A stretch of DNA of 64,000 nt from an uncultured virus (IMG/VR IMGVR_UViG_3300011258_000941) (taxonomy: Duplodnaviria > Heunggongvirae > Uroviricota > Caudoviricetes), in IMG/VR virus record IMGVR_UViG_3300011258_000941, one strand, 5' to 3'. The notes below the pieces were generated by a model, which was not told where the DNA came from, ran no database searches, and saw nothing but the letters and a program-made list of their open reading frames with translations. Made by a program: the position numbers and the translations under genes. Within the stretch, counting starts at the first letter, position 1. Each line of letters begins with the position of its first letter. Shown one piece after another: positions 10,171 through 28,790 of the stretch.

Positions 10171-10198
10171 TATATAACAGGTATTACGGCGACTAAAC
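10171..10198 (-). promoter_or_regulatory. Early promoter GTTTAGTCG-N12-TTATA
   Basis: Motif and TATA start 20 bp apart; ATG 29 nt after TATA start. Confidence 0.8.
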
Positions 10199-10472
10199 AG
10201 GAATCCGACTAAGCGGATTTAGTCGGAAGGGGGTAAGTATAATCTGTTAGTCGCGACTAACTGATAGGGTCTGCGTGGTGCGTTTAGTCGGAATTTTTAG
10301 GCGCGCCTAATTTTACCCCTACTTTTCGTGAAAGTTATTTAGTCGGATTATTTAGTCGTTAGTCGGGGCAGTTTAGTCGGACTTTTTTAGTCGGAAAAAA
10401 GAAAAATTAGTCGGAAAAATTACCTAAAGAAAAAAATAAATTTAGTCGGAAATTACCGAGTTTAGTCGGGAG

Positions 10473-10504
10473 GCCGCCGCGCCCTCCGAGGAAGGCGGGG
10501 CGGC
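10473..10504 (-). terminator. GC hairpin downstream of ORF 10559-10795
   Basis: Minus strand GCCGCCCCGCCTTC-CTCG-GAGGGCGCGGCGGC. Confidence 0.6.
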
Positions 10505-10558
10505 GTTGGTACGAGCCGTGACCGTTCGCAATTTTTGTGTCTAACAGTGGGAATAAGT

Positions 10559-10795
10559 TTAGTCGTCCGTTGGGTCGATAAGGTAGTTGTCAATCAGTAC
10601 CGCTGTAAGGGCGGGCCACTTAATTGCGAACTCCAAAGGGTTGCGTTGTAGCATGCGGAATTGTCGCATAGCGTAACCTTCCCGAAGGTTTTCTTCATCA
10701 GCCGCAATTTGAACGAAGGTGTCCCCGTCCGTCCATGTTGCAGTTTCGTACAGTGCTTTGTACGCCGCCGTTATTTCTTCTTCTTGTATTTTCAT
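10559..10795 (-). CDS. Hypothetical protein (78 aa)
   Basis: GAGGTGA RBS, promoter at 10829-10856; the stop codon lies inside a CGACTAAA motif. Confidence 0.75.
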   Translation of the reverse strand: MKIQEEEITAAYKALYETATWTDGDTFVQIAADEENLREGYAMRQFRMLQRNPLEFAIKWPALTAVLIDNYLIDPTDD

Positions 10796-10828
10796 CTTTT
10801 CACCTCAATATATCGTAGGGGGTGCTGG

Positions 10829-10856
10829 TATATAAGGCTGTCTACGCCGACTAAAC
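10829..10856 (-). promoter_or_regulatory. Early promoter GTTTAGTCG-N12-TTATA
   Basis: CGACTAAA 10848-10855, TATATAA 10829-10835. Confidence 0.8.
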
Positions 10857-11871
10857 GGGCATTTTCAATTTGTATTATTATTTAGTCGTGACTAATTAGG
10901 CGGGAATAGTTAGCGTTATTTTTATTATTTAGTCGGAATTGGGTGTTTTAGGGCGTTTAGTCGCGACTAATTTATGGGGTCGCAGTGTAGCGTTTAGTCG
11001 GAATTTTTTGGAAAAGTGTCGCGAGTGTAGCATATGAGGGGGATGAGATTTTTTTACGACTAAACAAGAGTAGGTCGTCACTTTTTTAGTCGGGGGCGAC
11101 CGACTAAAGTATCATAGCGCAGTCACGCGTTTAGTCGGAATTTTTTAGGAGGGTGTGTTTATGGGGGGTAGGAAGGAAATGGGTTTTAAATCCCGACTAA
11201 AAGGGGTACTGCAAGGCTGTTATTTAGTCGCGACTAGATGCACGAAAAAACCATATTCCGACTAAAACCCACCGACTAAAAAACAGGGCCACAGTCACGC
11301 GTTTAGTCGCAAAAAAATTTCAAAATCCTCGGAGTCTATGATAGATGAAAATGCGAAAAAAAATACGACTAAACGATGGACTGCAAGCATGGTTTTTAGT
11401 CGCGACTAGACGAGTGTTTTTGGCCTGTTCCGACTAAATCCATATAGGCCACCCACAAAACTGCGAGTCCGACTAAACAGTGGCTAAGTTTTCTAATCCC
11501 TTTTCGTACCGACTAAAAATATCTTGTCACCCATAATTTTTTAGGCGCGCCTAAACTTTTGCCCAAATTCCACCATCCAAAAAAAACTATTGACTACAAT
11601 AAATTCAGCCCCGACTAAATAAACCACCACCCTTCCGATTTTGGCGATTCCATCCCCTTTATTTAGTCGCACCTAAATTTGGCGTGGCGGGGGCCGGTTT
11701 AGTCGCTCCGTTTTAGTCGGCTTCGCCGCCCGTTTAGTCGCTCCATTTTAGTCGTCAAAAATCAAATTTAGTCGGTACGAAATCCCGACTCGGTTTAGTC
11801 GCTATCCCCCGTTTTAGTCGCATTCCTGTATCGCGCCCTTTTTTATTATAAGTATGACACGCAAGATGAGC

Positions 11872-11900
11872 GTTTAGTCGGCATAGAAAGGCTTATATAC
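11872..11900 (+). promoter_or_regulatory. Early promoter GTTTAGTCG-N12-TTATA
   Basis: Motif 11873, TTATATAC 11893; heads the rightward early genes. Confidence 0.85.
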
Positions 11901-11943
11901 TAGTAAGAATATGTATAAATAGAGCCGAAGGAGGCCAACAACA

Positions 11944-12090
11944 ATGATGCGAAACAAAGACGATATGATAACGATGAAGGGCGTGGCCTGTGACAAGTGC
12001 GGATGCAAAAAATTCCGTCCACTTGCTTCCGGCTCAAATGGAAACTGTGTCCACTGTGGCCGTTTCACCATCCTATGGAGTGCTTACTGA
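11944..12090 (+). CDS. Zn-ribbon microprotein (48 aa)
   Basis: GGAGG RBS; CDKC...CVHC. Confidence 0.65.
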   Translation: MMRNKDDMITMKGVACDKCGCKKFRPLASGSNGNCVHCGRFTILWSAY

Positions 12091-12211
12091 TGACTTGCTG
12101 TGAACCAATCCAAATTTTGACCTGCTCGGAACGCTCCGCCGTTCTCTTGTGTGCCGATTGCCGAAACCTACGGTTGAAAGTCCGAGTCCAAAAAGCGTTG
12201 GAGGCATCCGC

Positions 12212-12463
12212 ATGAGCCGAAGTGTTCACTGTGGAATTTGCATTGGGTGGTTTCGTCCCGTCCCGTCCGATGAGGACGAAGGCCAAAATTCCGACCCCAT
12301 AGCGTTCTCAAAACGCCCCTGTGAATACCCGTCATGCGAAAAATGGCGGGCAGGTCAAAGACACATTATACACACCGACCACACGATACCCCTGCCGCAT
12401 GGGACTCATCTTGAAGTGTGTGGCGATTGCTACTTGAAATTTCATGGGGTGTTTGAAGAATGA
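12212..12463 (+). CDS. Zn-finger protein, paralog of 13193-13378
   Basis: RPCEYPSC...HTDHTIPL...LEVCGDCY. Confidence 0.7.
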   Translation: MSRSVHCGICIGWFRPVPSDEDEGQNSDPIAFSKRPCEYPSCEKWRAGQRHIIHTDHTIPLPHGTHLEVCGDCYLKFHGVFEE

Positions 12464-12717
12464 GTAGTCACTTTCACGAATGCCCTATCTGTCAAAAATC
12501 CATATTGGATGCGGCAAACCTACATTATCACATGAAATTTTGTAGGAAGAAAAAATTCCAAAATATCGTTGATGCGGTCGTTTCTTTTGACTTAGCAATA
12601 AGTCAATGCGCCGAAGCCCCTTATCTGTTTGAAGACACCGACATCATACACATGAACACGGCAAAAATCTCAAACATTCTCATCCAAATCCAAAGGAGGC
12701 TTGAAAAATATGACTGA
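12460..12717 (+). CDS. C2H2-like Zn-finger protein
   Basis: CPIC...LHYHMKFC; ATGA coupling. Confidence 0.65.
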   Translation: MSSHFHECPICQKSILDAANLHYHMKFCRKKKFQNIVDAVVSFDLAISQCAEAPYLFEDTDIIHMNTAKISNILIQIQRRLEKYD

Positions 12718-12916
12718 ATGGGTTTCATATCCGAACCCCGACGCAGGTTTGAAATCCGCCTGTCGTCGTTTCCGCATCCGACCCTATGATACTTATCGCG
12801 GTCGCTTTTATGCGCTGATAGACTATGGGCATGAAGGTTACGACCGAAATTGGCCGCTTGACACGACTCATTCCACGATTGAAGAAGCGCAAATCGTCGC
12901 TGAAAGGAGGAATTGA
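12710..12916 (+). CDS. Hypothetical protein
   Basis: GGAGG RBS, coupled in operon. Confidence 0.6.
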   Translation: MTEWVSYPNPDAGLKSACRRFRIRPYDTYRGRFYALIDYGHEGYDRNWPLDTTHSTIEEAQIVAERRN

Positions 12917-12917
12917 A

Positions 12918-13196
12918 ATGAATGAAAAAACAAAAATGCACCCACGAAACCCAAAAATTAGACCGCCCGAAGGCCGACAAGAAATTACAGGCGAAGTCAT
13001 CACCATTCACGAACATGATGGGATTTACAATGGCTTGAATGTGATTTTAAAATGTGAAGGTTATCGTTTGTGGGGTAACCTTCCGAGAAAAATGAAGGCT
13101 AAAAAAGGCGAACTCATAACTTTCACGACTACCGTCAGTGTTTGGGGTGTCGGCTATGGCTTTTTCTATAACCCAACAGGAGGGCGAGTCCTATGA
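12918..13196 (+). CDS. Small OB-fold-like protein
   Basis: AGGAGG RBS; EGRQEITGEV...KKGELITFT beta pattern. Confidence 0.55.
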   Translation: MNEKTKMHPRNPKIRPPEGRQEITGEVITIHEHDGIYNGLNVILKCEGYRLWGNLPRKMKAKKGELITFTTTVSVWGVGYGFFYNPTGGRVL

Positions 13197-13378
13197 GCCA
13201 CGAAAAATACATAGGTCACTCAGCCAACCGACCTTGCGAATATCCATCATGCACAGTCGCCATTTACGGAAGAAGGTTCGTCATCCACAGTGACCACACC
13301 CTCCCTCTCACGCAAGGCACCCGCCTTGAAGTGTGTAGCAATTGTTACTCAAAGTTCTTCGGGGTGTTTGAAAAATGA
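13193..13378 (+). CDS. Zn-finger protein, paralog of 12212-12463
   Basis: RPCEYPSC...HSDHTLPL...LEVCSNCY. Confidence 0.7.
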   Translation: MSHEKYIGHSANRPCEYPSCTVAIYGRRFVIHSDHTLPLTQGTRLEVCSNCYSKFFGVFEK

Positions 13379-13815
13379 GCCACGATAAGTATTACCGAAA
13401 ATATGACCGAAAAAACGATTGGGCGGTTGATGAAGCACCGATTCCATGCCCATTTGGAACGACGCTCAAAAATCCACCCGTTGCTTTCCATGTGATTCTT
13501 CACCCGTTCAAAAGCGAATATCATTGGTCGCCCGATTGGAATTTTGTCGCCATGTATTTTTCATCATCACACGACCCCGCCGATTTATCCGACATTGAAC
13601 ACGCCAATATGAATGGATATGAAATGAAAATTCTCTATGAAATGGAAAATATCACGCCTAAAATATCGTACCGATTTGAACGGCTTGAAGGTACTTCCAT
13701 AGCAACGCGATATTGGCCGATTGCTCAAGGGGTAAAGCACCACAGGGGAAGCCTTGATGGTATCGCTATGACTCTAACGGGAAAACTAAGAAAAATGGTG
13801 GTTGATTTACAATGA
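13375..13815 (+). CDS. Hypothetical protein
   Basis: ATGA-coupled ORF. Confidence 0.65.
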   Translation: MSHDKYYRKYDRKNDWAVDEAPIPCPFGTTLKNPPVAFHVILHPFKSEYHWSPDWNFVAMYFSSSHDPADLSDIEHANMNGYEMKILYEMENITPKISYRFERLEGTSIATRYWPIAQGVKHHRGSLDGIAMTLTGKLRKMVVDLQ

Positions 13816-13994
13816 AAATCCGATGCGAAAAATGTCATGGCTATGGCCTCTTTGGTGGTCAAACCATCCATTCAAGAAATTTTACGGCAATAGTAATTTG
13901 CATAAAATGTCGGGAAGAGATGTGTGTGTTTAGTCGCCAACAAAAGACTTATAAACCTGCTCGTTCTAACAATAAACAGGAGAGGAAAAAATGA
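13812..13994 (+). CDS. Zn-ribbon microprotein
   Basis: CEKC...CIKC. Confidence 0.55.
   Translation: MKIRCEKCHGYGLFGGQTIHSRNFTAIVICIKCREEMCVFSRQQKTYKPARSNNKQERKK
13928..13956 (+). promoter_or_regulatory. Early promoter GTTTAGTCG-N12-TTATA
   Basis: Motif 13929, TTATAAA 13949. Confidence 0.8.
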
Positions 13995-14377
13995 AAACTA
14001 ACAAACAATACCGCAATAGCAAGCCAAATCAAGAAAAATGTATTTGTTGCTTCCGATGGCTTCCCAAATCAAGAATGCGAACTGTTTTCGGCGGGGGGTG
14101 GAAATGCAACCCGAAGGGTGGCTACAAAAATGCGATTGAATGCCTTCATCTTGATAATGACCAAATACACGGAATTGGTGCTTATCATAAACACGGCGGA
14201 AGTCTAAATTGGATTAAGCCGAAGGATAGAAAGTCTTTCGGATGGAAGGAAATTGAGAAGGCCGACCGATGGTTGCTTGAAGGTGAAATATCCGTGGAAG
14301 ACCACAAAAAAACCGTTTGGTATGTCCGTGAAGAAATCGCGCTTGTTGAAAAAGAAATGCAGGAGGATTCACAATGA
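13991..14377 (+). CDS. Hypothetical Cys-containing protein
   Basis: GAGG RBS downstream of a promoter. Confidence 0.7.
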   Translation: MKTNKQYRNSKPNQEKCICCFRWLPKSRMRTVFGGGWKCNPKGGYKNAIECLHLDNDQIHGIGAYHKHGGSLNWIKPKDRKSFGWKEIEKADRWLLEGEISVEDHKKTVWYVREEIALVEKEMQEDSQ

Positions 14378-14519
14378 CTGAAAAACCAAAAATGAACATC
14401 GTCCAACACCGCTTTTCATGCGGAAAATCCGTCAAGGGTATGCTCAAAATCCGACACGAAAAAGGCAAGGCTAATACTTTTGACCCAAAACTATTCCGAG
14501 AAAAATTGGAGGGGTCACA

Positions 14520-15050
14520 ATGACTGACGCAAGGAAAAAAAGCATCAAGGGTTCAAATAACTCCGAAAATCCGAATCAAAATATATGCGCTCGTGCCGTT
14601 GCGTACGCGCTTGATGTTGATAAGGAAGTGCGATATTTGCACACGCTCAACGATTTAATCAAGGCGGCTCGTAAAAAATGGACGGTACGCTCACGATTCA
14701 GCCTTTGGAATAAACATTTCAAAAATATACCCCTCACGGTGAATCAATTTATCAAAATGGTTCCCACCTTCACGATGAAATCCAATTCCCAAACTTCTTT
14801 TACCGAAAAAGAATTTTACGACCCCGACGAAAAAAGAAATTGGATAGAGTCAAAAACCTCATCACTTCGCACCCGCGCATATATCATTTATGTGAAGGGT
14901 CATGTCATGCTTATATCAAGCGACGGTACGGTTCACACCGACACCGCCCCCAAAGAAAACGCCGACCGCCGACAAATCAAAGCGATTTATGCGGTTGGTC
15001 ACTTAGATTCACACACAACGACCGAATGGGCCGACGAGGTGCAACAATAA
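14520..15050 (+). CDS. Hypothetical protein, possible papain-like Cys-His-Asp fold
   Basis: NICARAVA...YVKGHVML...HTDT. Confidence 0.55.
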   Translation: MTDARKKSIKGSNNSENPNQNICARAVAYALDVDKEVRYLHTLNDLIKAARKKWTVRSRFSLWNKHFKNIPLTVNQFIKMVPTFTMKSNSQTSFTEKEFYDPDEKRNWIESKTSSLRTRAYIIYVKGHVMLISSDGTVHTDTAPKENADRRQIKAIYAVGHLDSHTTTEWADEVQQ

Positions 15051-15063
15051 AAACGGTGTGTGT

Positions 15064-15092
15064 GTTTAGTCGCCACCGAAAGGCTTATATAC
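15064..15092 (+). promoter_or_regulatory. Early promoter GTTTAGTCG-N12-TTATA
   Basis: Motif 15065, TTATATAC 15085. Confidence 0.85.
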
Positions 15093-15157
15093 TACACCGT
15101 GTATGTATATTTAGAGCCGAGTAAGGCCGACAACCCAAACAATAGGAGGATAAAAAT

Positions 15158-15412
15158 ATGAAACAGGAAATAAACATTGGAGAAAAAACATACGCAATAG
15201 ATTACAGTATGGGCATGGAAGATTTATGCACAGACTGTTATGAGTATGATAGAAAATACTTTATCGGAAGCGTGGGCAACCTGCGGGTTTACCGCTTGTG
15301 CGCCCATGATTGCTACTTGGTTGAAAATTACTTTACCGATAGGAGTTATACAGAAGGAATTGCAGGTTATCCATACGAATGCGATTATGCCCATGAAGAG
15401 GTGAGCCAATGA
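15158..15412 (+). CDS. Hypothetical protein
   Basis: AGGAGG RBS. Confidence 0.7.
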   Translation: MKQEINIGEKTYAIDYSMGMEDLCTDCYEYDRKYFIGSVGNLRVYRLCAHDCYLVENYFTDRSYTEGIAGYPYECDYAHEEVSQ

Positions 15413-15981
15413 AAATCAAAACGACAGAAGAAATTGCACATAAAATATACGGCTTGAACGACCAACCAAGCGTGTATGTTGCCTGTCTCGGTTGCTACAA
15501 CGAAGGCCGACTTCATGGTAAATGGATGGATGCCGACGAATTGGAACAAAGATGGGAGTCTCCCCGACATTGGGATTCAAGCACAGGTTTGTCCCAATGC
15601 AAAAAACCGCACCACGATGAATGGGCGATTCACGATTATGACGGCGTTCCAAATTTGGGCGAGCATCCCGACATTCCGTATCTCATCAAGGTCATGCAAG
15701 CCGTTGAAGAACACGGCGAGCCGTTTCTTGAATGGTTCAACCTTGACCCTCACAACAAATCCCACCACGACGATTTGGGCGACGCGTTTGAAGAGGCGTA
15801 TGCCGGAGACTACGAATCAAAAGAAGAATTTGCGGAAGAATTTGCCGAAAGTTGCGGCTACATTGACTCCGCTTCAACCAATCCTCTTTGGCGATATATT
15901 GACTTTGAATGGTTTTGGAATGCCGAATTGAGGTATTCACACCACTATTCCAACGGTCATGTCTTTAGGAGTGATATTTGA
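15409..15981 (+). CDS. ardA: ArdA antirestriction protein (DNA mimic)
   Basis: VYVACLGCYNEGRLHGKWMD, EWAIHDYD, YAGDYESKEEFAEE, RYIDFE; strongly acidic. Confidence 0.9.
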   Translation: MKIKTTEEIAHKIYGLNDQPSVYVACLGCYNEGRLHGKWMDADELEQRWESPRHWDSSTGLSQCKKPHHDEWAIHDYDGVPNLGEHPDIPYLIKVMQAVEEHGEPFLEWFNLDPHNKSHHDDLGDAFEEAYAGDYESKEEFAEEFAESCGYIDSASTNPLWRYIDFEWFWNAELRYSHHYSNGHVFRSDI

Positions 15982-16364
15982 TGATTGACCTCGGCCCAAA
16001 AAAGGACATTATCACGGAAGCCGTCAGCGATGACGATTCAAAAAACAAATGGTATGGCCCGTTCAATGCCCACCATGAACCCGAAAAGGTGATTCAAGTC
16101 TTCAACAAACTCGCACGACAAAACCCGAAGGGGAGGAAGTCATCGGTTCTTGTTGGTATTGGTGGGGAAACCCATTGGCTTAGACCTACGGCAAAACTAA
16201 TTAGAGAAATGATTTGGAAGTCAAGTCACCACGCACAAAAATACAGAAATTGTGTTCAAACTACCGAATGGTGGTTTGACCCAAGCATTAGTCTTTCATG
16301 TTGGCCGAAAGCGCATAGCGACGCTTCTCTCAACGCTGAAAACAATTGGGGTGAGGAAGAATGA
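15978..16364 (+). CDS. Hypothetical protein
   Basis: Coupled ORF in operon. Confidence 0.65.
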   Translation: MMIDLGPKKDIITEAVSDDDSKNKWYGPFNAHHEPEKVIQVFNKLARQNPKGRKSSVLVGIGGETHWLRPTAKLIREMIWKSSHHAQKYRNCVQTTEWWFDPSISLSCWPKAHSDASLNAENNWGEEE

Positions 16365-16609
16365 GCGAAGCACCGAAAGAATACGAATTTAAACCCAAAA
16401 TGGCGCATGAAAAAACTCATGTGAATTGTTATCACAACAACAACTTTCATTCATGCAAAGGTGACATGATACAATTCCCAAAACACCCTTCGGGTCGGAT
16501 AGGTCAGCATTATTGTTGTCAAGGTCACGCATACATTTCATGGGCAGATTTGGGCGGTATAGACAAGCACTATAATTTCAAGCGGGTTTACAGGAAGGTG
16601 AGTCAATGA
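16361..16609 (+). CDS. Hypothetical Cys/His-rich protein
   Basis: Coupled ORF, GGTGAGG RBS. Confidence 0.65.
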   Translation: MSEAPKEYEFKPKMAHEKTHVNCYHNNNFHSCKGDMIQFPKHPSGRIGQHYCCQGHAYISWADLGGIDKHYNFKRVYRKVSQ

Positions 16610-16884
16610 GTGAAGAAATGGTAGGGATTTGCGGTTACTGTTCTTCTATGCAAGGCTACCACCCAAGCAATATGCTACTCATAGCACATCACCCAAGTCT
16701 TGCTGATGATTACTGCAAGGCATGTGATTCGCACCATCCCGATTACAAACCGACTGCTGATTGCGAAGACTTTAGACCTCGCAACCCCGATGTCTATGCG
16801 GGTGATACTTGGTTCTGTCAAGGATGCGGATGCGGTACAGAGTTTGAAGTCACTATGACGAAGGCACAGGAGATGATTGAATGA
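16606..16884 (+). CDS. Zn-binding hypothetical protein
   Basis: CGYC, CKAC, CQGC. Confidence 0.65.
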   Translation: MSEEMVGICGYCSSMQGYHPSNMLLIAHHPSLADDYCKACDSHHPDYKPTADCEDFRPRNPDVYAGDTWFCQGCGCGTEFEVTMTKAQEMIE

Positions 16885-17252
16885 AGAGAGCCGGAAGACC
16901 CCCACAAGGGCGCAAAATGAACATAGCCGTGTGCGAGGCCATTCGCGATATGTTGGCCTACCACTCCGCCGTTGCTAAGGAGCCGGTGTGGATGACATTC
17001 AATCAAATTTACGATATTATGGCCGCATCATGGAATTATTCTTTCCCTAAAAGAAACATAGGCCGATGCTTCCCTTCCGTAACACAGTGGGGTCAATGGG
17101 CCTCACAACAAGACAACCTAAAGACTGAATCAAGAAACTTTACGGAAAAAGCAATTGTCAATTTGAAGGTACAGACTTTCAAAACGGAGAAGCGGGCTTA
17201 CGCCTTCACAGGTAAGACCTACCGAGTAAAAACTGTTGGAGGTTCACAGTGA
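16881..17252 (+). CDS. Basic putative winged-helix DNA-binding protein
   Basis: Helix pattern WMTFNQIYDIM...PSVTQWGQW; basic. Confidence 0.55.
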   Translation: MKRAGRPPQGRKMNIAVCEAIRDMLAYHSAVAKEPVWMTFNQIYDIMAASWNYSFPKRNIGRCFPSVTQWGQWASQQDNLKTESRNFTEKAIVNLKVQTFKTEKRAYAFTGKTYRVKTVGGSQ

Positions 17253-17265
17253 GAGGGGTGTGTGT

Positions 17266-17294
17266 GTTTAGTCGCTACCGGAATCTTTATATAC
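17266..17294 (+). promoter_or_regulatory. Early promoter GTTTAGTCG-N12-TTATA
   Basis: Motif 17267, TTATATAC 17287. Confidence 0.85.
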
Positions 17295-17406
17295 TACTGC
17301 GTGTATGTATATTTGTAAGCGGGGACAGCCGACGACAACACGATACCCAACCCAAAGACAACCCAAAAACAAAAACAATGAAAACAAAAAAAATGGAAGT
17401 GAAAAA

Positions 17407-18369
17407 ATGATTGGAAGTTATATGCTGATGGGCCAAAAGGCTCAAGGAAACAATACGGAAGAGGTTTTGCGAAACGCAGGATTAGACTATGAGGTAAGGG
17501 CCGAATCCCTTTACACGGCGGCGGGCCGTGAAGTGCGGAGTAAATTTCAACGCATCGCTCGCACCGATAACGATGTGACGCTTGGTGTGGTTGGAAAGAC
17601 ATACAAGCCGATGCAAAACCGTGAATTGCTCGCGATTGCTGACTCACTCGTTCAAACCGACGACATAGCATGGGACAGAATAGGCATGGTTGGAGAAGGA
17701 GAAAAACTCTATGCTTCCTTCTCGTTGCCCGATTCGTTCCGCATTGATGGTTGGGATGACATAGACCAATACATTTACCTTACGAATACTCACGATGGCT
17801 CCGGTGGTGTGAAGTGCATCCCTGCGAACATTCGGTTCGGTTGTACCAACCAATTCGCATTCCATCGTAAGCAATTGGCGAAGGCGGGTATCAACCCTCG
17901 TGACCTCACGATTCGGCACTCTTCAAAGATGCACGACAGGGTGGCGCAATTCAAAAATGCAATCAACCTTGTGGACACGCTCAACAAAAACTTCGCTGAC
18001 ACGGCGGAGAATTTGCTTCGGGTGGAGATGACGGAAACGGACAAGGCCGAATACTACATTGATGTCCTCGGACTGACGACCGACAAGAAATTGGTATCGG
18101 AAGACAACGAGCATGGCCTCAAGACGCGTGGACTCAACACCTACAACCACTTGAAGGCTCTTGAATCCGCACCGACAAACAACACCGCCGCTATGCGTGA
18201 CACCGCTTGGGCATCGTTCAATGTCATTACGGAATACCTTGACCACGCTTGGGTTCACAATTCAAACGGAACCGTCAATGCGAAGCGCGCCGAATCCGCC
18301 ATTCTTGGAACGGGTTCACGCCAAAAGTCAAAGGCTTGGGACAACATCACCGCCCGTATGGTGGCTTGA
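17407..18369 (+). CDS. DUF932/DUF945 (TIGR03299-like) phage/plasmid protein
   Basis: AGLDYEV, RTDNDVTLGVVGKTYKPMQN, LTNTHDGS, IRFGCTNQ, TAWASFNVITEYLDH. Confidence 0.85.
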   Translation: MIGSYMLMGQKAQGNNTEEVLRNAGLDYEVRAESLYTAAGREVRSKFQRIARTDNDVTLGVVGKTYKPMQNRELLAIADSLVQTDDIAWDRIGMVGEGEKLYASFSLPDSFRIDGWDDIDQYIYLTNTHDGSGGVKCIPANIRFGCTNQFAFHRKQLAKAGINPRDLTIRHSSKMHDRVAQFKNAINLVDTLNKNFADTAENLLRVEMTETDKAEYYIDVLGLTTDKKLVSEDNEHGLKTRGLNTYNHLKALESAPTNNTAAMRDTAWASFNVITEYLDHAWVHNSNGTVNAKRAESAILGTGSRQKSKAWDNITARMVA

Positions 18370-18478
18370 GGGGTAGTCAAGAAGAATTATACTAACAGTG
18401 TTTCATCCCGTAAATGACGGACTCCCCATAGTGGGACTCCCGATGCGGAACGCAACATTACTTTTGGAGGAAAATAAA

Positions 18479-19326: not shown

Positions 19327-19489
19327 CTCGGTTCGGTTGGTACGATGTTCGCTATGCGATTTGTCCTTCATGTGGAAAAGTTTCTCCACCGTGGTTTTAC
19401 CTCAAAGATATTCAAGAGTGGTGCAACGACCACAAATCATCATGTGATGTAACTTCCTTCAAAGTGGAAGCATATTTGGAGGGGAACTG

Positions 19490-19789
19490 ATGGGTCGCGA
19501 TTTAACTTTAACTCAATTAGAAAACCTCGTTGTTGAAATGATTGGTGAAGATGCTACCTCCGAAGGTATCTTCTTGACCGACCGTAAGATTTGGGTTTCC
19601 AATATCAATGTTATGCGGGCCACCTGCCCCACCTGTGGACAGGAATTTGTCGGGCCGGACTACAATGTGTTTCACTTGCTCGCTACCCATGAGTACGGAC
19701 ACGCTAAGATGCTTGATATGGCTAAACAGGCGGCGTTCATGGAATACGATGATGAAGATGACGACAAAAAAGGTGGTGTGCCGATTTGA
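19490..19789 (+). CDS. C2H2-like Zn-finger protein
   Basis: CPTC...HEYGH, acidic tail. Confidence 0.65.
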   Translation: MGRDLTLTQLENLVVEMIGEDATSEGIFLTDRKIWVSNINVMRATCPTCGQEFVGPDYNVFHLLATHEYGHAKMLDMAKQAAFMEYDDEDDDKKGGVPI

Positions 19790-20295
19790 AGTGCTACATC
19801 TATTGTTGGAAAGACACCGAAGAACCAATCAACCCGTTGTTCTATGCGGGCTTGGGTTCACCATTCAAACTCTCCCCCGACTTTCAATTTGCCGAATCTG
19901 TTGATTTCGGTACTATTGGCTCAAACATACTTCACAACCAATTGGAAAAGACTTATCGTAAAGACTTTTATTTCGTACAGATTGAAGATGTTGTGAGCAA
20001 GCCCGACCACCGATGTTTCAAGTGTGGTTTGGGTTGGACAATAAAGGAATTGCGAGTGATTGCCGAAACTGACCCTCATGGTCACAAAACAACAATTTAC
20101 GATACGCACTTAGGTTCCCCACTGCGTCAAGATGAAAAAACTGCAAAAACCTTTAGCAAAAAGATATTTTACGCACGACGATGCAAAAATGAAGAATGTA
20201 TGACATTGTATTGTGCGGATTGCGCCCCACCAAACCGAGGCACAAATTCAAAGGCTTGTGATGATTGCCGACCCGCAAAGAGGTGGGAACGGTAA
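19786..20295 (+). CDS. Cys-rich hypothetical protein
   Basis: Multiple CxxC; TTG start overlapping the previous stop. Confidence 0.6.
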   Translation: MKCYIYCWKDTEEPINPLFYAGLGSPFKLSPDFQFAESVDFGTIGSNILHNQLEKTYRKDFYFVQIEDVVSKPDHRCFKCGLGWTIKELRVIAETDPHGHKTTIYDTHLGSPLRQDEKTAKTFSKKIFYARRCKNEECMTLYCADCAPPNRGTNSKACDDCRPAKRWER

Positions 20296-20297
20296 TC

Positions 20298-20332
20298 CGA
20301 CTAAAATTACCACTACCGACAAGTTTATATAC
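20298..20332 (+). promoter_or_regulatory. Promoter with inverted CGACTAAA site
   Basis: CGACTAAA 20298-20305, TTATATAC 20325. Confidence 0.65.
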
Positions 20333-20383
20333 AGGCATCGGTATGGGTAAACATGGGCGGAGTAGCCCGATGGAGGACTGAAA

Positions 20384-20965
20384 ATGATAAGAACAATTAA
20401 CGGAAAAGAATACGACACGAACAACCTTTGGTATGTGGGCGACCCATGCTATGTGGTTGCTGATGAACATTGGGGCGAGTTTTGCACAAGAACATATTGC
20501 GATGAAGCGAAAGCCTTCGCTCATTCCTATTGGGGTGACAACGGCCAACACTGCGATTCAATCATTGAGTGGGGTGGTGAGAAAATCACCATTTGGCGCA
20601 ACGGTGGCGACGGTACTTGGGAGTTTAGTTTTAGCGAAAGAAAAAAACCTCTCAACGGTCGCCGTTCTTCATTCGGTGTTGATGCGGGCATCTTTGCTAT
20701 TATGCCCCTAAAAATACTTGACATTGATATGATGACTACCGAGAGACTCATGAGATTAGGTTTGATATTTGACAAAGAACCCGACCTCCATGTGGAAGAC
20801 GATATAATCTATGTCAATGACCAACACGACGAGTCCGTGACCGAATGCCCCGATTTCCGGTGTCGTCGCCTCCTTACTTGGGATGAAATAGAAACCTGCG
20901 AGAACGGTACTTGTGAAGGTTGCTTCCAATGCTTTGATTGCGACTGTGTAGGTGAAGAAGAATGA
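20384..20965 (+). CDS. DUF4241-like protein with C-terminal Cys cluster
   Basis: VGDPCYV, GGDG, FGVDAG motifs. Confidence 0.55.
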   Translation: MIRTINGKEYDTNNLWYVGDPCYVVADEHWGEFCTRTYCDEAKAFAHSYWGDNGQHCDSIIEWGGEKITIWRNGGDGTWEFSFSERKKPLNGRRSSFGVDAGIFAIMPLKILDIDMMTTERLMRLGLIFDKEPDLHVEDDIIYVNDQHDESVTECPDFRCRRLLTWDEIETCENGTCEGCFQCFDCDCVGEEE

Positions 20966-21092
20966 AATGCGATATGTGCTTAGAAGAGAATGCTGAAACA
21001 AGAGGGCTAAGATGCGGGAAATACAAAGTGTGCGACCCATGTATTACAAAGTCCATTGAAGCAAGAATGTTTTTGATTGGGAGAGATAAACA

Positions 21093-21647
21093 ATGAACAT
21101 ATTCATACTTGACAACGACCCCGTAAAAGCGGCCCGCATGGTATGTGACTCTCACGCAAGCAAGATGTGTGTTGAAGGCGTACAGATGCTTGTTAGCGGC
21201 TTGCTCAACAACGGCGCACCTGCTGACCGAATGCCTCTCACCAAGACGACCGGCAAGCCCCACAAAGGCGGCTACAAGAATCATCCGGCGACCAAGTGGG
21301 CATCCGAAAATATCGCAAATTGGATTTGGCTTCTTAGCCACACCCAAGAATTGTGTCGTCAATTCAAGATACGGTTTGGTAAAATACATTTCGCACAAGA
21401 GCAAATTGATGGTCTGTACGGTGCTTGTGCGTGGGCGGACTACCTACCCGACTTGGAGGAAAAGACACCGTTTGCTCGTTGCCTCAACCAATCACAAGGT
21501 CGCAACCTTGACCTCTTGGATAGAGAAAAATACACAGATGTTCAAGCGTACCGAACCTTTTATATCCGAGAGAAGAGAGGGTTTGCTACTTGGGACAAGG
21601 GAGTACCCGCACCGTTATGGTGGCCCCAATCGGAGGAATTGAAATGA
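21093..21647 (+). CDS. Pyrimidine-dimer DNA glycosylase (T4 endonuclease V-like family)
   Basis: MNIFILDNDPVKAARMVCDSHASKMCVEGVQML, YKNHPATKW, AYRTFY...W. Confidence 0.85.
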   Translation: MNIFILDNDPVKAARMVCDSHASKMCVEGVQMLVSGLLNNGAPADRMPLTKTTGKPHKGGYKNHPATKWASENIANWIWLLSHTQELCRQFKIRFGKIHFAQEQIDGLYGACAWADYLPDLEEKTPFARCLNQSQGRNLDLLDREKYTDVQAYRTFYIREKRGFATWDKGVPAPLWWPQSEELK

Positions 21648-21952
21648 ATGTTATACCAAAACCATTTGAAGGAAAAGAATGCACCCACGAAGATTACGAA
21701 ACCGCTATGAGTTTTACCGGCGACACTTGGGAAATAGATTACCATTGTGATATTTGCGAGGGTTCCAATGCTTTCATTTTACCTGCTGACTCTTTCGTTA
21801 AAGTTAAGTTTGATTGGTACGAAGCAAAACCTATCTGTGTTGAATGCGAATTGACTCAAGAAAACTGCTGTTGTCAAGTGTGTGAAGACTGTGGAGCAGG
21901 AGAAGAACACCATTACGACATGAAATGTGAAATCTGTTTGGAGGAAGAATGA
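21644..21952 (+). CDS. Cys-rich hypothetical protein
   Basis: Several CxxC pairs. Confidence 0.65.
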   Translation: MNVIPKPFEGKECTHEDYETAMSFTGDTWEIDYHCDICEGSNAFILPADSFVKVKFDWYEAKPICVECELTQENCCCQVCEDCGAGEEHHYDMKCEICLEEE

Positions 21953-22254
21953 TGGGAAGAAAGAAACCAAGAAATTTACTCCTAAAACAAAGAGTCATCA
22001 AGATTCTCAAGGATAGCGACCGAGTTATTTCAGCCAATGAAATGATTACACTTCTCATCAATAGTGGACTCCACCAAATGTTCATACCATGCTCGTCAAA
22101 CTCCCTCGCTCAAATTCTAAGAGCGACAAAAGGAGTTTCCAAGTCCGACGAAGTATGGACTTCGGAAATGGGAAACAATTATGTTTCAGCCGGATATTAT
22201 CTTGAGAGTGAGGAAGCCTTCAATTCGTGGGTTGAATCAAAAATGGTGAATTGA
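21949..22254 (+). CDS. Winged-helix DNA-binding protein
   Basis: VIKILKDSDRVISANEMITLL...SNSLAQILR. Confidence 0.65.
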   Translation: MMGRKKPRNLLLKQRVIKILKDSDRVISANEMITLLINSGLHQMFIPCSSNSLAQILRATKGVSKSDEVWTSEMGNNYVSAGYYLESEEAFNSWVESKMVN

Positions 22255-23079
22255 TTGCGGATTGGTTCTTGGTTATTTTGTCGTCCTACTGATTTAGAAG
22301 TAACCTATTATTACCCCTATTCTAAAAAGGGTAAGAACCATGTCTTTCAACCGTACTTCGGATTAGAAACTCCAAGCGGTCATGTCGTCGTACACGGCAA
22401 ACGCTCCCTATGGTCACTGTTTGACTCTCTCTTCCCCGACAACCCATTACCACGCAACGCCGTTAATGATGACCTCAAAGACCCTATGGTTGGAAGGGAG
22501 GTTATCAATGGTCTTCTCAACGATTCGGAAGCATGGCCCCACCTACGACTTCAAGTTAGAACCGGAGATTGGAAAGACCATAGCGGAAGACCGACTAAAG
22601 GAACATTCGTTTTATCGGCATCACCCTCCGCTTCCGATTATGATATTACCCCAAATTTACTTTTGCTTGAGAAAACCACCAAAGAATCGTACACCATCCC
22701 AATTACTATTCACACAAAAACAAAACTAAGAACCATACCATCGGTAGTCATCCCGCTTGATAATGACCAAGATTACAAAGTTATAGTCACGGATTCTATC
22801 GGTGGGAATCACCTTATCTTTTCCATAATAGAAAAGTCGGGTTCCACTTTCCGTCCCCAAAGGATGAATAAATTTCCTGCTTCCGGTATTCAAGACCTAT
22901 GTTCCGACATTGAATCAAGGCTCGCACATCTAAAAAAATTGAGAAACGAAAGAATACTTTTCCCCGAAATGTCTCCACTTGATGCGGGGATGAGATTTTA
23001 CGAGCGTGACGATTTAGAGTTTCGTCGCTTCCAATCAATCAATTCTTTTTCTTCCTTACCTACCCCACAAAAAGAATAA
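22255..23079 (+). CDS. Hypothetical protein (274 aa)
   Basis: GGTGA RBS with TTG start; long ORF. Confidence 0.7.
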   Translation: MRIGSWLFCRPTDLEVTYYYPYSKKGKNHVFQPYFGLETPSGHVVVHGKRSLWSLFDSLFPDNPLPRNAVNDDLKDPMVGREVINGLLNDSEAWPHLRLQVRTGDWKDHSGRPTKGTFVLSASPSASDYDITPNLLLLEKTTKESYTIPITIHTKTKLRTIPSVVIPLDNDQDYKVIVTDSIGGNHLIFSIIEKSGSTFRPQRMNKFPASGIQDLCSDIESRLAHLKKLRNERILFPEMSPLDAGMRFYERDDLEFRRFQSINSFSSLPTPQKE

Positions 23080-23104
23080 ACCGCTTTACTGAAAGCCTAA
23101 TTTC

Positions 23105-23239
23105 TAATTCTTTCAATACTTCAAAGGTGTTTTAGTAAAGGCTTTCTATTATCTATACTACTACTTCTTCTTACAACCCTATGAAACAATAAAAGAATTA
23201 ACGCTTCCACCACTTAGTCATGCGTTTATTTCTTTTTGT
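23105..23239. repeat. AT-rich origin-like element, copy B
   Basis: Matches 4259-4320 with conserved spacing; immediately upstream of the replication operon. Confidence 0.75.
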
Positions 23240-23295
23240 CATCATGGAATTAACTGAAACAATTCCTTTATAGCCCTACAACCACAGGATAAGAT

Positions 23296-23703
23296 ATGGG
23301 AAGTAACACGACAGGAGCAAGAATGCTTGAACGAATATGGTTCTTTGTTGAACAGACGGGCGGAAGGATGCGTACTGATGAAATCCATCAGCACTACATC
23401 AACACCTACGATGACCTACCCCGTATGGCTGACATGACACAACGCTTGTTGAAGTCCGGTCTGTTCAAGCGGGTAGGATGGGAAAACCGAAAGACGGGAG
23501 AGTTTACAGAAACCTCTTTGGGTATCAAGGACTTGGCGAGAATCGGTCTTGTCAATTCAAATCTTGTCTGTGTCGTGGAGTCAAAACCAATTGACGAAAT
23601 CATTGATTCATACATGAACAACAAATCAACACTTCGCAAACTATCCCGCCAACCCTCCTTCGTCAAGGCGGCGGTCAAAGAAGCAAAGGCGGTGAACCAA
23701 TGA
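23296..23703 (+). CDS. Winged-helix-like protein
   Basis: TTATA 28 nt before ATG; MRTDEIHQHY...LLKSGLFKRVG. Confidence 0.65.
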   Translation: MGSNTTGARMLERIWFFVEQTGGRMRTDEIHQHYINTYDDLPRMADMTQRLLKSGLFKRVGWENRKTGEFTETSLGIKDLARIGLVNSNLVCVVESKPIDEIIDSYMNNKSTLRKLSRQPSFVKAAVKEAKAVNQ

Positions 23704-25777: not shown

Positions 25778-26579
25778 TTTATTCTGTGGTGCAGGGGGAG
25801 TTACGGAAGGGGCTTTGCGGGCAGGTTTTGAAATAGTGCTTGCTATGGACAAGTGGCCCGAAGCGATACAAACATACCGATTAAACCACCCCGAAATAGA
25901 AACCTACTGCTTTGATTTGGACACATCGCCATCCATTGTGGCTCAAATGATTACTCCTTATCTTGACGACGACGCTCACTTTCACCTTCATGGTTCCCCA
26001 CCATGTCAAGCACTTTCAAACGCTTCATGGAACACCGAACCCGAAAATGGTCTTCGTATGGTCGTGTGGTTTTACGAATTGGTTGATATATTGAAACCGG
26101 ATTCATTTTCAATGGAAAGTGTTTGGGGAGTAAAGCCTTTCTTGGAAGAAAACAATAAGCGTTATAGTTTTGTGAACAGTGCTGATTACGGAGTACCCCA
26201 ACGAAGGAGAAGAATTTTTGCCGGTGAAGGTTGGAAACTTCACCCCTCCCATATGGGGCATTGGGTTTCAACGGCTGACGCATTACCTCACCATGAAGGC
26301 AAAGACTTCACTCCCGTTGAGTGTATGAAGAAACGATGGAAGATGACCATAAATGACCCGTACCCAACAATAACAACAAAAATACGAAGTCAAATTAAAA
26401 TTGGCGGCAAAACATTATCGCATAAGGATTTGGTCACGCTTCAAGGTTGGGAAGGTTTTATTTGGGATAAAAATACTAACCTTCTTGACATTGAGGTAAT
26501 GATTGGTAATATGGTCAATCCCCCTATCATTGAGAATATGCTAACCAATTTAGAACCAACAAATTACGAATGGGTGTGA
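25758..26579 (+). CDS. C5-cytosine DNA methyltransferase
   Basis: DLFCGAGG, GSPPCQ, MESV (ENV variant), YGVPQRRRRIF, IGNMV. Confidence 0.9.
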   Translation: MKKQMVDLFCGAGGVTEGALRAGFEIVLAMDKWPEAIQTYRLNHPEIETYCFDLDTSPSIVAQMITPYLDDDAHFHLHGSPPCQALSNASWNTEPENGLRMVVWFYELVDILKPDSFSMESVWGVKPFLEENNKRYSFVNSADYGVPQRRRRIFAGEGWKLHPSHMGHWVSTADALPHHEGKDFTPVECMKKRWKMTINDPYPTITTKIRSQIKIGGKTLSHKDLVTLQGWEGFIWDKNTNLLDIEVMIGNMVNPPIIENMLTNLEPTNYEWV

Positions 26580-26581
26580 AC

Positions 26582-27211
26582 ATGAGAACGAAGAAAGAAA
26601 TTGAACAACGGCTTGCCGGAGAAATGAATGCGCTAACGATTGACACCCTTCGGTGGGTTCTTGACACACCGATTTGTCCTATGTGTGGAATCAGCACACG
26701 GAAAGACCTTGAGGTTGAGGTTCACATTGGGAATGTTAGTACCGCATATTTAGAGGAAAAGTATTCTTGGCCCATCGGTACAGTGATGACCCACATGGAT
26801 GACCATGTGGATTATGACCCCGAAGAAGCGAAGCACATGGAATCCATGCGATACGAGAGCATAAACACACTTGATGCGGCACAGGACATTGTTAGCCGTC
26901 TTCTTGGGTGGCTTGATGAATTGGAAGCCGTCAAGGATAGCGAAGGAGGTATCACTTCGGAATGGGTAACTGATGCGGCTAAATTGGTTGCACAGGCAAA
27001 CACTTCTCTCCGACTCGTCGGACAATTGAAGAAAGAAATCGGTGTTGATTCTCAATTGCTTTTAGCACAAAAGCAAATGGATGGTGTCATGGGTGTGCTT
27101 GTCAATACCCTTCGTGACCAACCACAATTGCTTGACATGATAGAGTTACAGGTGGCCGCATTGAAGCCACCGACCCATGTTCAAGATGTTGATTTTGAGG
27201 TGATGGATTGA
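26582..27211 (+). CDS. Zn/HTH plus coiled-coil protein (possible terminase small subunit)
   Basis: CPMC...HMDDH followed by helical oligomerisation-like region; the function is a guess. Confidence 0.45.
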   Translation: MRTKKEIEQRLAGEMNALTIDTLRWVLDTPICPMCGISTRKDLEVEVHIGNVSTAYLEEKYSWPIGTVMTHMDDHVDYDPEEAKHMESMRYESINTLDAAQDIVSRLLGWLDELEAVKDSEGGITSEWVTDAAKLVAQANTSLRLVGQLKKEIGVDSQLLLAQKQMDGVMGVLVNTLRDQPQLLDMIELQVAALKPPTHVQDVDFEVMD

Positions 27212-27489
27212 AGAAGTGGAGAAGTGGCTCGGCCAAAACATTCTATGCTCGTCCTATCAAGAAGATAGAGTACCCAATACTCATCAAGGCTATGATTGAG
27301 GATGGACTAAATGCTGAAATTACTGATAAGGGAATAGTATGGTATCATGGTGATTACCAAATACAAACTAAGTCTGTGCGAAAGGTTTGGGGTCTAAGTA
27401 TTCACCAATTCCGAAGTTTCCAAAGCCACATTTTTGAAAAGAATCCGTTTGGTGGATATTATGAAGGGAATAATTATCTTAACGACTGA
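27208..27489 (+). CDS. Hypothetical protein
   Basis: GAGGTGA RBS, TTG start. Confidence 0.6.
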   Translation: MKKWRSGSAKTFYARPIKKIEYPILIKAMIEDGLNAEITDKGIVWYHGDYQIQTKSVRKVWGLSIHQFRSFQSHIFEKNPFGGYYEGNNYLND

Positions 27490-28132
27490 CGAGCGAGCAT
27501 ACCGTCAAGGTGCAGTCATTGAAACAGGTGCTTTCATTCATCCTCCGACAAGGGAAGACATAACCTACATCGTGCATTTGCGTAAAGTCACGGAGAAGGA
27601 AATCAAACGGTGGCTTGACATTGTGGGTTATCGTCTTGTCATCGTGATTGACAAACTCCCAACACTTTCAAAAGATATTAAGGAAGAAATAATAATTGAC
27701 AAATCTTTACTTGTCGGTAAACCGAATCACAAGAGACAGATTGACGCACTGTTCCGTTGGACAGACAGGCAACGGGTACACAATGCTTTCAAAGGAATGC
27801 CGATACCTCTTGCCGTATCATTTTTACGGGAAAACAAAAAGGATGATATGCACCTGTGGCGATTGCTCGCTGATGTGCAATACACCCTCCCGACAGAATA
27901 TGCGGAAGCCGTGATGGTTTACTCTATCAAGCCTTCAAGAGTCACTGTTAAGTGGCCTAAGAAGAAAGCCAAGCAGGATGAGCGACCAACCATCTTCCGT
28001 GAATCCGATGTGTATTGGAGAGAAATAATCAACGCCGACAAGAAGGTTCGCAACACCGTTAGGTCGGAAAACATTGAAAGGCTTCCTAAGTCCGTCAAGA
28101 AACGGAAAGAGAAGGTCTTGGAATGGTTATGA
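27461..28132 (+). CDS. Hypothetical protein ending KVLEWL
   Basis: GGTGG RBS; basic C-terminus. Confidence 0.7.
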   Translation: MKGIIILTTDERAYRQGAVIETGAFIHPPTREDITYIVHLRKVTEKEIKRWLDIVGYRLVIVIDKLPTLSKDIKEEIIIDKSLLVGKPNHKRQIDALFRWTDRQRVHNAFKGMPIPLAVSFLRENKKDDMHLWRLLADVQYTLPTEYAEAVMVYSIKPSRVTVKWPKKKAKQDERPTIFRESDVYWREIINADKKVRNTVRSENIERLPKSVKKRKEKVLEWL

Positions 28133-28323
28133 CATACGGTGACATTTCTTTTATTTTAACAGTATTATTTACTTATGGTTGCTACGCTTACACCAAGCGT
28201 CATAACCGAATCACCCGATGGAAAATTCAACAAATAGAGAACGGTAACTACGAAGGCTCTCCTACCTACGAAGGCCAACCGATGCCGCACGACATGAACG
28301 CTCTCATGTGGTATGACCTATAA
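28129..28323 (+). CDS. Small membrane protein
   Basis: N-terminal hydrophobic helix. Confidence 0.55.
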   Translation: MTYGDISFILTVLFTYGCYAYTKRHNRITRWKIQQIENGNYEGSPTYEGQPMPHDMNALMWYDL

Positions 28324-28365
28324 TTATTCGGTACGCTTAAATTAAGTGCAAAGATAAGGTTAAAC

Positions 28366-28767
28366 ATGAGCGCAACGAACAGTCGTATTCGGCGCGCTAT
28401 CCTTGACCTTTTGTGGGAGCATGGGCCGATGACCAAAGAAGAGGTTGCCGCTTGTCTTGGACAACATCGTGGTGTCGCACATATTCCTTCCCCGCATTCC
28501 CTATCGGCTCTATTGTGTAAATCTCACTCAATTATTGTTATCGGAAAAAAACAAGTGGAGAACATCGTCGGAGCGAAATCTAAACACGCTCTTTACGACA
28601 TTGACCGAGAGGTTGTTTTACACAAATCCGAAATCAAATACATTCGTGAACCTTCAACCATGACACCAAAAGAAAAAACTCTTTCTCTTAAATGTGAATG
28701 TGGGCGCACACGCATTTTCCCACCCAACAGTGATGAATGTTTGTCATGCGCCCGAACAGGCGTTTAG
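28366..28767 (+). CDS. Winged-helix regulator with C-terminal Zn ribbon
   Basis: AILDLLWEHGPMTKEEVA; CECG...CLSC. Confidence 0.75.
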   Translation: MSATNSRIRRAILDLLWEHGPMTKEEVAACLGQHRGVAHIPSPHSLSALLCKSHSIIVIGKKQVENIVGAKSKHALYDIDREVVLHKSEIKYIREPSTMTPKEKTLSLKCECGRTRIFPPNSDECLSCARTGV

Positions 28768-28790
28768 TCGCTACCGGAACCTTTATAAGC
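28762..28790 (+). promoter_or_regulatory. Promoter GTTTAGTCG-N12-TTATA
   Basis: Motif 28763, TTATAAG 28783. Confidence 0.8.

Follow-up and report, generated by a model that had tools for sequence, protein, structure and literature searches.

Virus-specific regulatory sequences of Sulfolobales viruses appear to be the closest known kind of element to the one described here. These viruses carry virus-specific consensus sequences around strong transcription factor B recognition element (BRE)/TATA cores before early anti-defence genes (Bhoobalan-Chitty et al. 2024, PMC11065993). The DNA analyzed here is a stretch of 64,000 nucleotides from an uncultured virus (IMG/VR record IMGVR_UViG_3300011258_000941), hereafter the window. 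It contains a 9-nt word, GTTTAGTCG, that lies at a fixed distance before TATA boxes and is amplified in a 2.3-kb array with about 52 copies of its core (9500-11900), next to a gene for a 424-amino-acid (aa) orphan protein. The likeness to Sulfolobales viruses is twofold. First, each genome has a common regulatory sequence of its own ahead of small genes with poor conservation, anti-defence genes among them. Second, a similar core promoter is combined with differing flanks, which implies different virus-encoded regulators. The two cases also differ. The window virus is tailed, and its predicted host is a marine euryarchaeal lineage. Its word is discrete (9 bp), keeps a fixed helical phase upstream of the BRE, is amplified into an array, and is respaced by one helical turn between lineages. 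The term 'magrovirus' is absent from the accessible part of PMC11065993.

The archaeal activators Ptr2 and TFB-RF1 bind just upstream of BRE/TATA (PMC5569661). The window word likewise lies directly upstream of the BRE, and recruitment of TATA-binding protein (TBP) or transcription factor B (TFB) is proposed here. Unlike Ptr2 and TFB-RF1, which are cellular and serve few operons, the window system has strong-looking cores and a factor that is only a candidate. Regulators of this type act at promoters with weak core elements, and EarA is reportedly another archaeal activator with a site just upstream of BRE/TATA. F55 of the virus SSV1 represses through sites that overlap the BRE and the start site, and its own promoter is autoregulated (PMC5569661). 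F55 and Sta1 resemble the window system in using short repeated words at viral early-gene promoters and, for F55, in autoregulation. However, both lack a site array several kilobases long, and their sites keep no fixed geometry upstream. In plasmid Rep/iteron systems, DnaA boxes, EBNA1 with the family of repeats of Epstein-Barr virus, and SV40 T antigen, the same word serves an array and promoters. The array adjoins the gene of the binding protein in these initiator systems, and inverted copies in its own promoter mediate autorepression. The window system differs from them in being archaeal and in having a candidate protein without a recognizable initiator fold.

The word occurs 23 times on the two strands of the window, compared with 0.43 copies expected and a maximum of 3 in shuffled sequences, and 17 of the 23 copies fall within 10100-11900. 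Seven copies are separated from a TTATA by a spacer of exactly 12 nt, a start-to-start distance of 21 bp. Their motif starts are 11872, 13928, 15064, 17266, and 28762 on the plus strand, and their 5' bases on the minus strand are 10856 and 10198. All seven are co-oriented with the next open reading frame (ORF) on their own strand, and a pattern with an 11-nt spacer has no site in the window. The preliminary description had placed the motif 20 bp before TTATA at seven promoters. The seven sites and the TTATA coordinates stand, but the motif starts were one too high. At a TTATA rate of 6e-4 per position, seven of the 23 copies would share a given offset with a probability of about 7e-18, or about 3e-16 once 41 offsets are allowed for. 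The heptamer TTATATA is present seven times on both strands of the window, five times with the word at -21. The other two belong to the 20325 promoter and to the promoter of the array-adjacent gene, 9341(-). The two remaining word-bearing promoters have TTATAAA (13949) and TTATAAG (28783).

Mean pairwise identity among the seven sites is 100% in the word, 90% in the TATA octamer, 45% in the spacer, and 31% in the 20 nt upstream. Thus, selection appears to act on the word and its spacing rather than on the cassette as a whole. The core TTAGTCG is present in 63 copies in the window, 52 of them in 9500-11900. All seven promoter copies are prefixed with G, whereas the 63 copies split 23/15/15 among G, A, and T at this position. 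Coding regions contain six further copies of the 7-nt core; by hand arithmetic, about 8 copies of any 7-mer are expected by chance on both strands of 64 kb. The word is a predicted cis-regulatory site of the promoters that serve the ArdA, DUF932, zinc-microprotein, and small-gene blocks, where it lies immediately 5' of BRE/TATA.

Each of the seven sites has a (C/T)TTATA(T/A)(A/G) box located 29-73 nt before the next start codon; at 17266 the distance is 91 nt, with the ATG at 17378 replacing the doubtful one at 17305. A strong BRE is rich in purines and has, counted back from the TATA box, G at position -6 and A at position -3 (PMC11065993). At the seven sites, purines likewise predominate in the six bases adjoining the TATA octamer, with G at -6 in five and A at -3 in six, although this criterion is Sulfolobus-derived and may not transfer to the predicted host. 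Taking 29 nt from TATA to the transcription start, as at the 424-aa gene, the word is predicted to occupy about -50 to -42. Downstream of TATA, several promoters also have in common an A/T-rich stretch and a AGAGCCGAAGGAGG-like start region, which is kept in relatives as well. The 354-aa DUF932 ORF opens with an ATG at 17305, only 18 nt from the first base of TATA and thus ahead of the point where the transcript is predicted to begin. Since this ATG is inside the promoter, the true DUF932 start is probably among the ATGs at 17378-17408. Directly 5' of the word at the three internal promoters is a G/T-rich run, GGTGTGTGT (13918-13927, 15054-15063, and 17256-17265). Relatives have GGTGGTG or GGTAGGTAGG at this position. 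The run could be an extension of the site or an end signal of the upstream block.

Several further claims of the preliminary description bear on these promoters (P1-P8 in Table 1). Archaeal-type promoters with a separate upstream element are borne out by the word and the TATA/BRE-type cores at the seven sites. The proposed gene content of the class, ArdA, DUF932, and zinc microproteins, agrees with the Pfam matches in the ArdA block (E 4.5e-27) and the DUF932 block (E 3.4e-36) and with many small Cys-rich proteins. An eighth promoter with an inverted site is indeed present, at P8, with an 8/9 match at 20298-20305; it is a single case, and its ortholog in L125 carries the word in forward orientation, 13 nt from the TATA box. 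The claim that replication promoters lack the motif holds in part. Five TATA-like candidates of the replication module lack the word. A second promoter type without the word, ccTTTATAnCCC, with short leaders, is found upstream of 23296, 31188, 33999, 41450, and 42094, 28-46 nt before the start codon, at the head of replication-module genes. However, the word-bearing promoter at 28762 (P7) stands before a series of ORFs that overlap or abut one another, the last being the clamp-loader gene (30222-31139). The early timing of the class and the activator, also proposed in that description, are treated here as hypothetical. The P7 word contains the TAG stop codon of an HTH_20/zinc-ribbon gene (28366-28767).

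Table 1. Promoters, array, and array-adjacent genes of the window, followed by word classes and 424-aa homolog promoters of relatives.
Feature	Position	Strand	Description
424-aa orphan zinc-ribbon protein gene	8059..9333	-	basic, isoelectric point (pI) 9.1; conserved start ATG 9312
424-aa gene promoter	9334..9353	-	CGCCTAAAC-gaa-TTATATAC; TTATATAC at 9341-9334, 29 nt before ATG
Array block 0	9540..9700		7 TTAGTCG cores, one palindromic pair, A-tracts, then GC-rich hairpin
Array-embedded 122-aa acidic protein gene	9780..10148	-	pI 4.1; P1-driven
P1	10171..10198	-	word 10198-10190, 12 nt, TTATATA 10177-10171; drives 122-aa gene
Array block 1	10200..10570		direct repeats of TTTAGTCGG and A-tracts; 10395-10444 84% A+T
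Array-embedded 78-aa acidic protein gene	10559..10795	-	pI 4.3; P2-driven
P2	10829..10856	-	word 10856-10848, 12 nt, TTATATA 10835-10829; drives 78-aa gene
Array block 2	10880..11880		no credible ORF; inverted word pairs 63 bp apart, then 30-bp steps; palindromes TTAGTCGCGACTAA
TTGACTACAA, second array element	11590..11599	+	constant in relatives with different class word
P3	11872..11899	+	word, 12 nt, TTATATA; block opens with 48-aa zinc-ribbon microprotein 11944-12090
P4	13928..13955	+	word, 12 nt, TTATAAA; block 13991-15050
P5	15064..15091	+	word, 12 nt, TTATATA; block 15158-17252 including ArdA 15409-15981
P6	17266..17293	+	word, 12 nt, TTATATA; DUF932 block
P8	20298..20331	+	TTTATATA at 20324; inverted 8/9 word (CGACTAAA) 19 nt upstream; status uncertain
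P7	28762..28789	+	word, 12 nt, TTATAAG; heads 28825 onwards to clamp-loader gene
L123			word (G/T)CTTAGTCG (G/TCTTAGTCG); 6 sites at 12 nt
L124			L123 word; 2 sites at 12 nt
L125			L123 word; 5 sites at 13 nt
L121, L122			GGTTAGACG, minor GGTTAGCCG; 4 sites each at 22 nt, and one each at 23 and 24 nt
L130			GGTTAGCCG / GGTTAGCGG; 3 sites at 22 nt
L138			AGTTAGTCG; 2 sites at 12 nt
G004			AAATAGTCG; 4 sites at 22 nt; 24-copy array 8916-10829
L131, L133, L135 424-aa homolog promoter			CGGCTAAC-TTGATATAC
L134 424-aa homolog promoter			CGCCTAAC-TTGATAAG
L123 424-aa homolog promoter			TGACTAAGAC-TTGATATAG

Relatives were drawn from a pattern scan and from loci of the DUF932 protein (5 loci), the 424-aa family (10 loci), and a 447-aa ATPase (48 loci). 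The scan of the collection with a 26-nt pattern returned 119 stretches, among which core density singles out only L071, L036, and L032. L013, from the same scan, matches the window at 97-100% identity in each of the 14 ORFs between 25749 and 30237. The remaining stretches were rejected as single chance matches. Contigs from two sequencing runs are relatives at 90-99% identity. The same-word relatives L071, L032, and L036 keep both array-embedded promoters with the 12-nt spacer. Other relatives use five different words, TCTTAGTCG, GGTTAGACG, GGTTAGCCG, AGTTAGTCG, and AAATAGTCG, and the array was captured for four of the five. Wherever it was captured (L123, L121, L122, L130, G004, and the three same-word relatives), the top 8-mer of the array is the promoter word. 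The array had been tied to the promoters in the preliminary description, and the joint shift of the word in both places supports this, pointing to a single recognition specificity. This co-variation between lineages makes it probable that a single DNA-binding factor is involved, encoded by the virus and evolving rapidly. Among the 48 ATPase loci, a 7-mer at a fixed TATA offset in at least three promoters was seen in 10 loci. The hits inspected were L138, L163, and L169, with L166, L167, and L182 left out; most other ATPase loci have few such promoters within their 10-kb flanks.

Within a genome, the spacing is essentially fixed, at 12, 13, or 22 nt. Alignment of orthologous promoters (zinc-ribbon gene, ArdA block, and DUF932) reveals that the change from 12 or 13 to 22 nt is a 10-bp A-rich insertion between the word and the BRE. 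The insertion corresponds to one helical turn, so the helix face is kept. An upstream site on a fixed face, as for Ptr2 and TFB-RF1, is thus found at the 12-nt spacing (7/7) and at the 13- and 22-nt spacings.

The lineages with TTAGNCG words are 86-90% identical to the window in the 447-aa ATPase and 72-75% in DUF932; the corresponding values for G004 are 77% and 41%. The word varies while these proteins stay similar, and its turnover is therefore much faster than that of core genes, which fits viral rather than host specificity. Alternatively, a transcription factor of the host (Poseidoniales) may read the word, with the array recruiting or soaking up the host protein. Sta1 of Sulfolobus is such a host-encoded activator of viral promoters, those of SIRV1 (PMC1635249), and a pre-existing protein would explain simultaneous firing of the early-side promoters. 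However, at least six words are used among viruses whose 447-aa ATPase is 77-90% identical, so that a host factor would need to vary at an equal pace. The rapidly diverging array-adjacent gene, in addition, supplies a viral source of specificity. We consider a host reader improbable.

The 424-aa gene adjoins the array in the window and in every relative with the region captured. Members of the 424-aa family from viruses with the same word are 53-95% identical, and members from different word classes 23-33%. C279, C282, C295, C298, and M8 are invariant in alignment A1 of the family. The 20 homologs are all metagenomic, and 29 cluster representatives were found among 1.84 billion proteins. The protein has no match in Pfam, PHROGs, NCBIfam, or PDB sequences; a Pfam search with 20 family members and a syntenic protein of the distant relative G002 yielded no family, and an ESM Atlas search with the 424-aa protein yielded nothing. 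No cellular homolog was found in a pattern-based genome-contig scan of limited sensitivity. Predicted models reach a pLDDT (predicted local distance difference test) of 71 for the full protein and 84.6 for the C-terminal domain. The N-terminal domain of MCM, the best Foldseek match, was rejected as the fold, with E values of only 0.07 and 0.03 and a template modeling (TM) score of at most 0.17. VIA structure comparison of the models gave Z scores of at most 4.6 and 3.5, and no fold was assigned. From its position and co-divergence, the 424-aa protein appears to be the best candidate reader of the word.

The TATA box of the 424-aa gene lies so close to the conserved ATG (Table 1) that a leaderless mRNA is probable. 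An inverted word with one mismatch, GTTTAGGCG (plus strand, 9345-9353), is 3 nt from this TATA, over the BRE position. An inverted near-consensus word against the TATA is also found in word classes B and C, and is degenerate in class D (L130); in L123, L131/L133/L135, and L134, it differs from the class word by one mismatch, as in the window. The inverted word occupies what would be the classical place for autorepression. The leader of the homologs in classes B-D (L131/L133/L135 and L134) contains an upstream ORF of 5 codons whose sequence doubles as a hairpin, ATGCCGCGTAGCGGCTGA. The arms of the hairpin stem are swapped in L123 (ATGCGGCATAGCCGCTGA, about 1190-1290 on the minus strand), a compensatory change. 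The upstream ORF/hairpin is absent from the leaderless promoter of the window. A one-letter variant of the word, TTTAGGCG, forms single sites near the 424-aa promoter (9345-9353 and 9385-9396). It also forms two perfect palindromes, TTTAGGCGCGCCTAA, in the array (10296-10310 and 11540-11554). The variant sites suggest graded affinity classes.

The explanation we tentatively favor, at somewhat less than an even chance, is that one virus-encoded word-binding protein exerts positive control at the word-bearing promoters through contact with the initiation complex. The word would be the binding site of this single sequence-specific protein. Single co-oriented words at a fixed helical phase upstream of BRE/TATA would unite the anti-defence and other non-structural blocks as one regulon. 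The bound protein would touch the TFB/TBP-promoter complex from one helix face and aid its assembly, and would repress its own gene through the inverted site over the BRE. The array, with about 60 sites, would be its main platform, either an origin-like or hub element or a sink that sets the level of free protein.

The same viral factor and sites may instead serve negative control. Strong host-read promoters would fire at once, the accumulating factor would shut them off together, and the array would buffer or time the free factor. This arrangement would resemble Aca at anti-CRISPR promoters or F55 at the early promoters of SSV1. It is consistent with the strong-looking BRE/TATA cores, with the need of ArdA-type anti-restriction genes to be expressed first, and with the promoter of the 424-aa gene, where the inverted word lies over the BRE, a classical repressor position. 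The virus-specific flanks before early anti-defence genes of Sulfolobales viruses were also partly read as repressor sites (PMC11065993), and the known archaeal viral regulators are mostly repressors that autoregulate (PMC5569661). However, the word at the seven promoters is clear of the BRE, the TATA box, and the start site, ending 12 nt before TTATA. Overlap of an operator with the core, of the Aca or F55 type, is found at the 424-aa promoter only and at none of the seven. In the 22-nt classes, the word is about 15 bp upstream of the BRE, which is too far for simple occlusion. A site with strict orientation and helical phasing is more often one whose bound factor touches the initiation complex. 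Negative control is thus possible, although we find it somewhat unlikely. Positive control is favored because there is no core overlap, the orientation is strict, and respacing by a full turn is tolerated.

The arms of the array palindromes are 7 bp apart start to start, and the direct repeats are 14 and 20 bp apart with A-tracts. Relatives have a small minus-strand gene at the same place as the 122-aa gene. The second array element, TTGACTACAA, is present in 8 of 12 records searched (the window, L071, L123, L121, L122, L130, L131, and L185), flanked by palindromic word pairs, and was not found in the other four (L032, L036, L135, and L184). It occurs in one or two copies inside the array, for example at 4678/4696 in L121, 3916/3934 in L123, and 2908/2926 in L130, and may be bound by a conserved protein or form the core of an origin. 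A tandem pair of 26-bp repeats (CCTATCATGAACGG...) occupies 9483-9534, between the 424-aa promoter and array block 0. Among the features of iteron origins that were looked at, clustered direct and inverted repeats and A-tracts are present, and the adjacent gene lacks a recognizable initiator fold. The repeats, palindromes, A-tracts, and TTGACTACAA would fit an origin-like or hub element.

These array features also bear on an explanation without a transcriptional role, in which the array would serve replication, as an origin, or packaging, and the promoter words were carried along by cassette duplication. Iteron-like direct repeats, palindromes, and A-tracts, together with the class-independent core TTGACTACAA, speak for it, as does the sequence shared downstream of TATA by the promoters at 11872, 15064, and 17266. 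However, the word is 100% identical where spacers and flanks are 31-45% identical. Orthologous promoters carry the own word of each relative, and duplication alone is therefore insufficient. We regard the explanation without a transcriptional role as very improbable.

The distant relatives G002 and G003 have an ATPase 62-64% identical to that of the window. G002 contains a 40-copy array of GTTACATAA at 19446-23002 (L186/L187). The promoter word of this lineage is CTCACGAT (AACTCACGAT in G002), 9 nt before TATA (L169, 459-13800). CTCACGA occurs eight times in L169, a piece of G002, and five of these copies are exactly 9 nt before a TATA box; G003 has four promoters with the word at one fixed offset. 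The G002 array is adjoined by a syntenic minus-strand gene of 466 aa. Alignment of the 466-aa protein with the 424-aa family by hhalign gave a probability of only 20-27%, over a short CPxCG knuckle. Identity of the array word and the promoter word holds for the TTAGNCG/ATAGTCG group, not for all relatives. In addition, an 8-mer, GGTCCTGT, occurs 49 times on one strand at 1299-4872 of G002, with spacings that are multiples of 9; these repeats probably mark a collagen-like repeat protein.

Several points weigh against positive control by one array-binding protein. The core BRE/TATA elements look strong, so an activator may not be needed, and most archaeal viral regulators are repressors (2017 review, PMC5569661). 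An activator needed at all early-side promoters would have to be made first, for which only the word-variant promoter of the 424-aa gene seems to offer a route. The 424-aa protein has no DNA-binding fold recognizable by Foldseek or VIA, and its co-divergence with the word is also expected of any fast-evolving neighbor gene. Finally, the array word of G002/G003 differs from their promoter word, so the use of a single protein in both places is not general. The 466-aa G002 protein has no match in a hidden Markov model search with the 424-aa family.

We infer that the window derives from a magrovirus-like tailed archaeal virus of marine Poseidoniales, matched by published description and gene set. 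Its morphogenesis genes encode a portal (2722-4077, minus strand), a large terminase (6129-7616), a tail tube (56517-57524, minus strand), and a tape measure (52078-55611, minus strand). Replication genes include a family B polymerase (PolB, 38120-40408) and the RFC-like clamp loader. A Cpn60/GroEL-family chaperonin gene is present at 32441-33964, and PD-(D/E)XK and ERCC4 nucleases and three DNA methylases are also encoded. This set agrees with magroviruses as characterized by tailed-virus genes, their own PolB, clamp loader, and chaperonin, and an origin in marine metagenomes (PMC5434244). The assignment is based on this agreement and on three further features. First, the PolB is closest to that of haloarchaeal tailed viruses (22-24% identity). 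Second, the window has no excess of bacterial-type promoters (16 compared with 15.1 expected). Third, nearly complete records of related viruses are 60-67 kb. A megablast comparison of 10100-18400 with public phage records found no match, and Rfam and tRNA scans of the window found nothing.

The terms 'promoter' and 'TATA' are absent from the accessible main texts of the magrovirus literature searched, and 'motif' is absent or occurs only as 'HTH motif' (HTH, helix-turn-helix). A full-text literature search with the words returned only unrelated primer-like matches. The system is new in its host group, in a discrete word placed upstream with exact helical geometry, and in array amplification, at least six natural specificity variants, and an orphan candidate protein.

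A broader proposal, which we regard as unlikely, is that one orphan family would both bind the array as an origin or hub and switch the anti-defence regulon. Its specificity would be re-coded in each lineage, and a copy-number-sensitive array sink would time the switch from early to replicative genes. If true, EBNA1, E2, or T antigen would have an archaeal counterpart in this dual-role protein, and the array, the promoters, and its own operator would all change together with the re-coded specificity of each lineage. The word marks a candidate anti-defence gene set in any related contig. The word and the candidate protein, with natural specificity variants, form a pair that is testable in vitro without culture. 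The 12- and 22-nt spacings constitute a natural experiment on how an upstream factor may communicate with the archaeal initiation complex.

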